DNA of 64,000 bases from Escherichia coli (GTDB taxonomy: Bacteria > Pseudomonadota > Gammaproteobacteria > Enterobacterales > Enterobacteriaceae): NCBI RefSeq assembly GCF_030384885.1, contig NZ_CP128613.1. One strand, 5' to 3'. Position numbers and translations under genes: made by a program. Every line of letters begins with the position of its first letter. Within the stretch, counting starts at the first letter, position 1. Of the stretch, positions 7,064-7,635 are shown piece by piece. The notes beneath the pieces are model-generated. The model worked only from the letters and a program-made list of their open reading frames with translations, was not told the origin of the DNA and ran no database searches.

Positions 7064-7274
7064 GGTGGGCGATTCTAATTAGCCAACAGGATTCGCGCCA
7101 CTCATTTTTCTATGCTTATATTTAGTTTTGCACCTTATTACTTCACTACGTCATCACTTTATTGATGGTTATTAAACCAATCACCATTAAGAAGTGAAAA
7201 AACTGTGAGTAAGCGGGTGATAAATGGTAAAAGTCATCTTGCTATAACAAGGCTTGCAGTGGAATAATGAGAAC

Positions 7275-7635
7275 GTTTCCGTGTCCATCCTTGTTAAAAC
7301 AAGAAATTTTACGGAATAACCCATTTTGCCCGACCGATCATCCACGCAGCAATGGCGTAAGACGTATTGATCTTTCAGGCAGTTAGCGGGCTGCGGGTTG
7401 CAGTCCTTACCGGTAGATGGAAATATTTCTGGAGAGTAATACCCAGTCTGTTTCTTTGATAATTGCGCTGTTTTTCCGCATGAAAAACGGGCAACCGACA
7501 CTCTGCGCCTCTTTGAGCTGACGATAACCGTGAGGTTGGCGACGCGACTAGACACGAGGCCATCGGTTCACACCCGGAAAGGCGTTACTTTGCCCGCAGC
7601 TTAGTCGTCAATGTAAGAATAATGAGTAAGTTACG
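7275..7635 (+). promoter_or_regulatory. rne: rne long 5' leader (autoregulatory UTR); 5' boundary approximate
   Basis: ~570-bp non-coding gap upstream of the rne ATG; K-12 rne has a ~361-nt autoregulated leader; exact TSS not determinable from sequence. Confidence 0.55.

Follow-up and report, generated by a model that had tools for sequence, protein, structure and literature searches.

The rluC–rne intergenic region of Escherichia coli: an autoregulatory rne leader and an opposing yceQ frame that very probably encodes no functional protein

The gap between rluC and rne in Escherichia coli is long and carries an open reading frame on the strand opposite to rne, which raises the question of whether this DNA serves as the leader of rne, as a small gene, or as both. 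In the window, by which is meant the whole stretch of 64,000 nucleotides that was analysed, the gap lies in chromosomal DNA between the divergent genes rluC (6104..7063, − strand; 23S rRNA pseudouridine synthase) and rne (7636..10821, + strand; RNase E, 1061 aa), both of which are clear ORFs and are annotated in K-12 and in strain 2013C-4282. An earlier, sequence-only reading of the same DNA had put the distance between the two genes at about 570 bp, had presented it as an autoregulatory leader, itself of roughly 360 nt, and had regarded the antisense ORF within it, of 122 codons, as probably not a gene. From the ORF boundaries, the distance is 572 nt (7064..7635). The reading reached here, to which we assign a probability of about 0.94, is that the gap consists of ~211 nt of regulatory DNA followed by the 361-nt rne leader, and that the yceQ ORF opposite is accidental and has no functional protein product.

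The intergenic sequence is widely shared. It is 100% identical in strain 2013C-4282 over 7064..7635, and of the 5426 complete E. coli genomes 5425 carry it, the identity being 95-100%. With respect to K-12, the window differs at 8 positions within 7064..7274 and at none within the leader, 7275..7635. Beyond the species, rluC and rne are divergent in nearly all of the Enterobacterales loci fetched (n = 120, among the matches listed), and the gap between them in these same loci is mostly 552-580 nt in length, from Escherichia to Photorhabdus. This constancy of length includes the ~280 nt that separate the rluC start from the core of hp2, one of the leader hairpins described below. A second class of length variants was also seen, in which the stretch from rluC to the hp2 core, comprising the promoter and hp1, is longer by ~60-420 nt (loci L044, L100, L117, L119 (Erwinia), L114, L009 and L090), and the hp1 region of Erwinia persicina and E. 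rhapontici aligns poorly with hp1 of E. coli. In a comparison with E. albertii the intergenic DNA is 98% identical and is thus more conserved than its coding flanks, rluC being at 90% and rne at 93%. Outside the gap itself, in the yceF–rluC spacer (window ~5993..6103), there are REP/BIME-like palindromes such as GCCGGATGCGGTTACGTCGCATCCGGC and GGCCTGATGCGGCGTAAACGCCTTATCAGGCC, which are an ordinary E. coli repeat. On the far side of rne, the K-12 annotation has the small RNA FlgO (b4826), which starts at the last base of flgL and runs toward the 3′ end of rne; by analogy with its K-12 locus coordinates (487..564), an equivalent should be present in the window at ~10,940..11,016 on the − strand.

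The identity of the leader follows from its match to a known RNA family. A scan of Rfam returns one match only, on the + strand at 7275..7611, and the family is RF00040 (rne5, the RNase E 5′ UTR element); the match scores 260.1 bits, where the gathering threshold is 180 bits, and has an E value of 2.1e-82. The match covers the model from end to end (1-333 of 333) and stops 24 nt short of the rne ATG at 7636, on the same strand. rne5 is the autoregulatory 5′ UTR element of RNase E in the Enterobacterales. Autoregulation through the RNase E leader is said to have been described by Jain and Belasco in 1995, by Diwa et al. in 2000 and by Schuck et al. in 2009, and the last two of these reportedly identified hp2 as the sensor of RNase E. 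The window and the Rfam family agree in the same hp1, hp2 and hp3, in a length of 361 nt and in a position directly upstream of rne on the same strand, and the leader is identical throughout to the K-12 rne5 element. Nothing substantive differs; in other words, this is the E. coli element itself. The autoregulatory leader that had been proposed from the sequence is therefore present, given a full-length match of this score together with covariation among 103 relatives (see below).

Its 5′ end can be placed from the promoter. A sigma-70-like site on the + strand at 7239..7268, which we assign to rne promoter P1, has a −35 hexamer TTGCTA (7239..7244), an 18-nt spacer and a TG-extended −10 hexamer AATAAT (7263..7268). 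Although it matches the sigma-70 hexamers at 9 of 12 positions and is the only such site on either strand of 6950..7750, the − strand of that interval giving none when searched, the chance expectation for a site of this quality is 1.4 per shuffle, and the argument for P1 rests on its placement and on the literature. Since the −10 hexamer ends at 7268, transcription would start ~7 nt downstream, at 7275, which coincides with the first base of the Rfam match. Necessarily, a start at this position gives a 5′ UTR of 361 nt (7275..7635, +), equal to the published length (PMC10989929).

It is evident, therefore, that the leader does not fill the whole of the 572 nt, and that the ~211 nt at 7064..7274 is instead promoter and regulatory DNA, containing P1, a candidate DnaA double box and further conserved blocks. 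One such block, at 7094..7123 (CGCGCCACTCATTTTTCTATGCTTATATTT), is conserved at 76-84% across all 79 aligned Enterobacterales and at 90-95% in close species, sits 150-180 nt upstream of P1 and includes a TG-extended −10-like motif, TGCTTATAT. From its sequence it may be an upstream rne promoter or a part of the rluC promoter, and is a candidate only for either role. The rne promoters p2 and p3 were reportedly placed by Ow and colleagues, in 2002, at 34 and 145 nt upstream of p1. These distances would fit the TG-extended −10-like motifs near 7226-7233 and 7113-7121, and the block at 7094..7123 is perhaps the p3 promoter of that work.

The candidate double DnaA box, TTATCACCC gc TTACTCACA on the − strand, lies at 7203..7224, which is 15-36 bp upstream of the −35 hexamer of P1 and inside the 3′ part of the yceQ ORF. 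Its assignment is made by identity, since 7203..7224 is the same as the double box found in K-12 under a DnaA ChIP-seq peak (PMC11317965). That peak, at position 1144772 and labelled ‘(yceQ) rne’, was reported in 2024 as a novel DnaA target, a link between RNase E and replication not being known (PMC11317965). A pattern scan recovers one of the two boxes, at 7204..7212; the second lies at 7215..7223. Single-box matches to the DnaA consensus TTATNCACA number 48 in the whole window against 55 expected, which is the frequency of chance, and the motif by itself thus proves nothing. The surrounding block, 7194..7233, is conserved at 89-95% in 30 close species, and the conservation of this upstream part of the ORF in close relatives would be accounted for by the presence there of P1 and of the candidate DnaA double box.

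Within the leader, projection of the Rfam consensus gives the known arrangement of stem-loops, all on the + strand. hp1 (7277..7316) is made of the helices 7277-7282/7311-7316 and 7290-7294/7299-7303. hp2 (7326..7382) has an apical core, GCAGCAATGGCGTAAGACGT, at 7346..7365, with a 2+6-nt internal loop; this loop and the pairs beside it have been published as the determinant of RNase E binding. hp3 (7388..7602) is multi-branched and is closed by a long-range stem, 7388-7398/7592-7602. Of the 84 Rfam pairs, 81 are canonical in the window sequence, and a single-sequence minimum free energy (MFE) fold of the leader recovers 73 of them, with 11 of 11 in hp1 and 51 of 56 in hp3. The sequence-only reading had proposed such a fold as a check against hp2 and hp3, and in most of their pairs the fold agrees with them. 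The folding energy itself, however, is no better than that of shuffled sequences (z = −0.66 on the + strand; −1.91 on the − strand), and thermodynamics alone is accordingly no evidence for the structure, the support for which comes from covariation and from the Rfam model.

In this regard, the comparative evidence is extensive. Across an alignment of 103 distinct Enterobacterales leaders, in which the 84 Rfam pairs were scored, standard pairing is found in 86.6% of cells, as against 33-43% when the partners are slid by 1-3 columns, and changes on both sides are seen in 50 of the 84 pairs (524 cells), a degree of covariation reached by none of 500 shuffles. Such two-sided changes affect 10 of the 11 pairs of hp1 among relatives. 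In hp2, columns 91/125 (CG 39, AU 31, UA 8) and 92/124 (UA 37, AU 28, GC 15) both covary, and the hp3 closing stem is paired at 98.3% in 103 species, with G-U pairs that fit the + strand only. Helices 2, 9 and 10 are weaker, at 60-70% paired in the same 103 leaders. Over all cells, G-U combinations outnumber A-C (732 vs 332), and pairing is 86.6% when read on the + strand vs 82.0% on the − strand; it follows from the excess of G-U over A-C that the structure fits plus-strand RNA better than its complement.

The hp2 core is also conserved at the level of its sequence. In a scan of one genome per species for the exact 20-mer GCAGCAATGGCGTAAGACGT of 7346..7365, it was found in at least 120 Enterobacterales species, where about 0.5 chance matches are estimated. 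The genera among the matches listed include Escherichia, Salmonella, Klebsiella, Pantoea, Erwinia, Dickeya and Pectobacterium, and further Serratia, Yersinia, Hafnia, Edwardsiella, Photorhabdus and Xenorhabdus. Within the alignment, the lack of any variation at 7346..7365 is partly circular, the loci having been chosen by an exact match to that 20-mer, but the neighbouring block 7384..7403, which is free of this selection bias, is conserved at 95-98%.

Some relatives carry insertions in the leader, all of which lie at one spot corresponding to window ~7414..7420, at the base of the first hp3 sub-hairpin (7419..7455). The hosts are Klebsiella oxytoca, Citrobacter youngae and C. braakii, Pseudocitrobacter, Kluyvera, Raoultella and an Enterobacter. 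Where there is one insertion it measures 89-128 nt (loci L082, L036, L071, L061, L055, L040 and L105) and the double ones measure 251-257 nt (L111 and L095). By eye, they resemble repeats of the ERIC/IRU type (for example ...CCCCAGAAGCTTACTCCTGTAAGTGTCTGGGGTGAG...), and a search of the ~125-nt insertions of other genera for ERIC primer sequences, allowing up to 4 mismatches, found essentially none. The insertions interrupt the yceQ frame, and the remaining leader stays conserved.

Turning to the antisense ORF, a frame of 122 codons with a GTG start does exist on the − strand at 7187..7555, as had been claimed, although it is judged here not to be a gene. The accompanying statement that it lies wholly inside the leader needs correction, since 88 nt of it (7187..7274, comprising the last 29 codons and the stop) are upstream of the transcription start, where they overlap both P1 (7239..7268) and the candidate DnaA double box (7203..7224). 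The proposed correspondence to K-12 yceQ (b1085, ‘DUF2655 domain-containing protein YceQ’) is sound, the two sharing locus, strand and frame, with 98% amino acid identity over the shared part. They differ at their ends. K-12 YceQ has 106 aa and begins at an internal GTG equivalent to window 7499..7501, whereas in the window another GTG, at 7555, allows a start 18 codons upstream of that point; and the K-12 frame ends two codons later, having GC where the window has TT at 7187-7188 (TGC vs TAA). A further difference, at 7272-7273, puts Phe in the window ORF in place of Ala in K-12 YceQ, such that the 4 window/K-12 differences inside the ORF amount to one nonsense change (7187-88) and one missense change (7272-73). 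Apart from K-12, no feature is annotated over this match in the 15 E. coli RefSeq records listed, nor in 2013C-4282. In NZ_CP027579.1 the locus tags pass from C6996_RS07725 to C6996_RS07735 across rluC and rne, with RS07730 missing, a break in the numbering that points to a former annotation, probably of yceQ, since withdrawn.

Two descriptive claims made of this ORF hold in part. It was said to lack an obvious ribosome binding site, which is so for the GTG at 7555 but not for the K-12 start, GTG 7501, which is preceded by AAGAGG with its GAGG 6 nt upstream. It was also said to be rich in Cys, Lys and Arg; these residues are indeed present in number (Cys 7 of 122, Lys 10, Arg 8), but the more abundant ones are Ser (15), Thr (11) and Val (10).

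The most direct test of coding function is the distribution of substitutions over codon positions, and conservation at the codon level had indeed been put forward, together with ribosome footprints, as what would make the ORF a real gene. In a MAFFT alignment of 78 species against the window, with 600 nt each of rluC and rne as controls, substitutions at positions 1/2/3 of the yceQ frame number 2754/2339/2532, as compared with 1867/681/7767 in rluC and 821/253/5950 in rne; summed chi-square values are not valid as P values for such counts, since the species are non-independent, and the contrast with the two controls is used in their place. The same contrast is seen as mean per-column divergence among the 30 closest species, which for positions 1, 2 and 3 is 0.175, 0.122 and 0.147 in the yceQ frame, 0.066, 0.017 and 0.418 in rluC, and 0.029, 0.006 and 0.319 in rne. 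In other words, the third-position excess that is the mark of codon-level purifying selection is absent from the yceQ frame across the 78 species.

Nor is the frame itself maintained. Measured as the stop-free stretch around the hp2 core, it is open for 126 codons in the window, 131 in the E. coli representative, 128 in E. albertii, 99-110 in Salmonella and Citrobacter, 44-90 in Klebsiella and Enterobacter, 11-78 in Pantoea and 32 in Photorhabdus, and the positions of its stops vary at both ends among taxa. Indels of 1 nt within the ORF are found already in Salmonella (L108) and Citrobacter (L094), insertions of 89-257 nt split the ORF region in Klebsiella, Citrobacter, Raoultella and Kluyvera, and the database proteins of E. 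coli and Shigella have C-termini of four kinds, with several frameshifted forms among them. Within the YceQ peptide, only the segments antisense to the hp3 closing stem and to hp2 are nearly invariant. Profile searches of the ORF against Pfam-A (2025 copy) and NCBIfam gave 0 families at E ≤ 1, DUF2655 included, and the precomputed Pfam domains of 32 YceQ homologues are likewise none. Codon usage, as log-odds trained on a small set of four window genes, one of them mis-framed, is −0.20 per codon for the ORF, while genuine genes lie between +0.33 and +0.59 when read in frame and between −0.26 and −0.48 when read out of frame. The view that the ORF is probably not a gene is thus upheld, by the absence of codon selection, a frame that is not conserved, no family match and non-coding codon usage.

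Functional studies from the literature point in the same direction. Ribosome-profiling reads on yceQ, which had been named beforehand as evidence that would speak for a gene, are absent in three conditions, a result that covers few laboratory conditions only (Price et al., PMC5053530). The ORF is moreover broken in some strains and carries transposon insertions, from which Price et al. concluded that there is no protein (PMC5053530). Goodall et al. found many TraDIS insertions in yceQ, in one orientation only (PMC5821084), a tolerance explained by the presence of the rne promoter inside yceQ. In the dCas9 screen of Rousset et al., the only toxic guides were those oriented to block rne transcription (PMC6242692). 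Of particular relevance is the synonymous recoding of three Ser codons of yceQ, which was non-viable (PMC7614783). The recoded codons fit the TCG/TCA codons at 7496-98, 7481-83 and 7457-59, a mapping that we infer from the 14/24-nt spacing, and these codons lie in helices of hp3. Constraint on synonymous sites is the prediction of an RNA element and not of a protein.

Against this background, two other accounts of the locus have to be considered. One is that yceQ is a real, lineage-restricted gene for a small Cys-rich protein of 106-122 aa, translated at a low level or under specific conditions, which we regard as scarcely credible. Some features speak for it: K-12 annotation still describes a DUF2655 protein, gene calls in Salmonella, Citrobacter, Lelliottia and Klebsiella include homologous ORFs, and in most Enterobacteriaceae neither of the other two antisense frames stays open for as long. 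Its SD-like AAGAGG stands 6 nt upstream of the K-12 GTG, which is a workable distance, and when the 572 nt are shuffled 2000 times with dinucleotides preserved, only 1.05% of the shuffles contain an ORF of 122 codons or more. Such a length is unusual for one region yet unremarkable genome-wide, and a long ORF with an AAGAGG is compatible with an accidental frame that is preserved by constraint at the nucleotide level. Against a gene stands the lack of third-position bias in substitutions, together with frameshifts and stops of varying position within E. coli, Shigella and Salmonella. Between the window and Salmonella the amino acid identity of YceQ, 73% with 67% of the query covered, falls below the nucleotide identity of ~88.5% (42 substitutions in 366 nt), when in rluC and rne the opposite is seen, amino acid identity being above nucleotide identity. 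To this are added the lack of Pfam or NCBIfam matches, the non-coding codon usage, the failure to find a promoter-like site on the − strand, the absence of ribosome-profiling reads (PMC5053530), and the tolerance of disruption when rne transcription is kept (PMC5821084, PMC6242692).

The other account has a minus-strand transcript passing over the rne leader, either as a long rluC 5′ UTR or as an antisense RNA, in an arrangement known as an ‘excludon’, which would regulate rne or rluC by transcriptional interference or RNase III cleavage and in which the ORF would be incidental. This we hold to be improbable, if a little less so than a protein-coding yceQ. The position of yceQ upstream of rluC on the same strand makes read-through geometrically possible, and ExcludonFinder lists rne–yceQ among 16 divergent excludons present in ≥50% of 58 E. 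coli RNA-seq samples (PMC12288877). However, that program extends its units from annotated genes, and the rne 5′ UTR necessarily overlaps the body of yceQ, such that the call may follow from the annotation itself. In addition, the − strand of 6950..7750 is without a sigma-70-like promoter, CRISPRi guides on the yceQ coding strand are without a fitness effect (PMC6242692), and the G-U/A-C asymmetry of the conserved pairs favours a structured + strand RNA. An extended version, of similarly slight probability, has the − strand over the leader transcribed, as an extended rluC 5′ UTR or antisense RNA, and perhaps at times translated, with the GTG at 7501 and its SD-like motif as the start, to give a young product restricted to Escherichia and Salmonella that would modulate rne or rluC; as a separate part of this version, RNase E synthesis may be coupled to the replication cycle through the candidate DnaA double box at 7203..7224.

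The preferred reading, in which the gap is regulatory DNA plus rne leader and the yceQ frame is accidental, leads to a simple scheme that draws on the published mechanism. The leader folds into hp1, hp2 and the multi-branched hp3; by the established mechanism, RNase E binds to hp2, with hp3 contributing, and so hastens the decay of its own mRNA; and when RNase E activity is in excess its synthesis falls, closing a negative feedback loop. RNase E-dependent feedback on the decay of rne mRNA through the 361-nt UTR is summarised in PMC10989929. On this reading the yceQ frame persists in Escherichia, and partly in close relatives, only by way of the nucleotide constraint that RNA structure and promoter impose, and the ‘essentiality’ of yceQ, as reported, amounts to disrupted expression of rne.

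It may be seen that yceQ has counterparts elsewhere in the genome, in ypaB (at the nrdA promoter) and sroG (at the ribB riboswitch), where, as here, the apparent essentiality or the annotation comes from a cis-regulatory element of an essential neighbour. Overlaps of this kind are exposed by strand-specific signatures in CRISPRi or TraDIS (PMC6242692, PMC5821084). yceQ differs from the other two in overlapping a long structured mRNA leader as well as a promoter, whereas ypaB and sroG overlap just a promoter or a riboswitch.

Both the leader and the non-gene status of yceQ are already known; the finding is an ordinary one and no new biology follows from it. Its value is mainly that of annotation hygiene, since yceQ is still in the K-12 reference and was counted among the essential genes by the Keio and PEC collections, and it has been the cause of a real failure in synonymous genome recoding, which came about because what is constrained is the rne leader rather than a protein. 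Indeed, the lack of a coding signature in the yceQ frame, taken together with a covarying RNA on the opposite strand, is an independent confirmation, from sequence only, of the conclusion reached by functional genomics.
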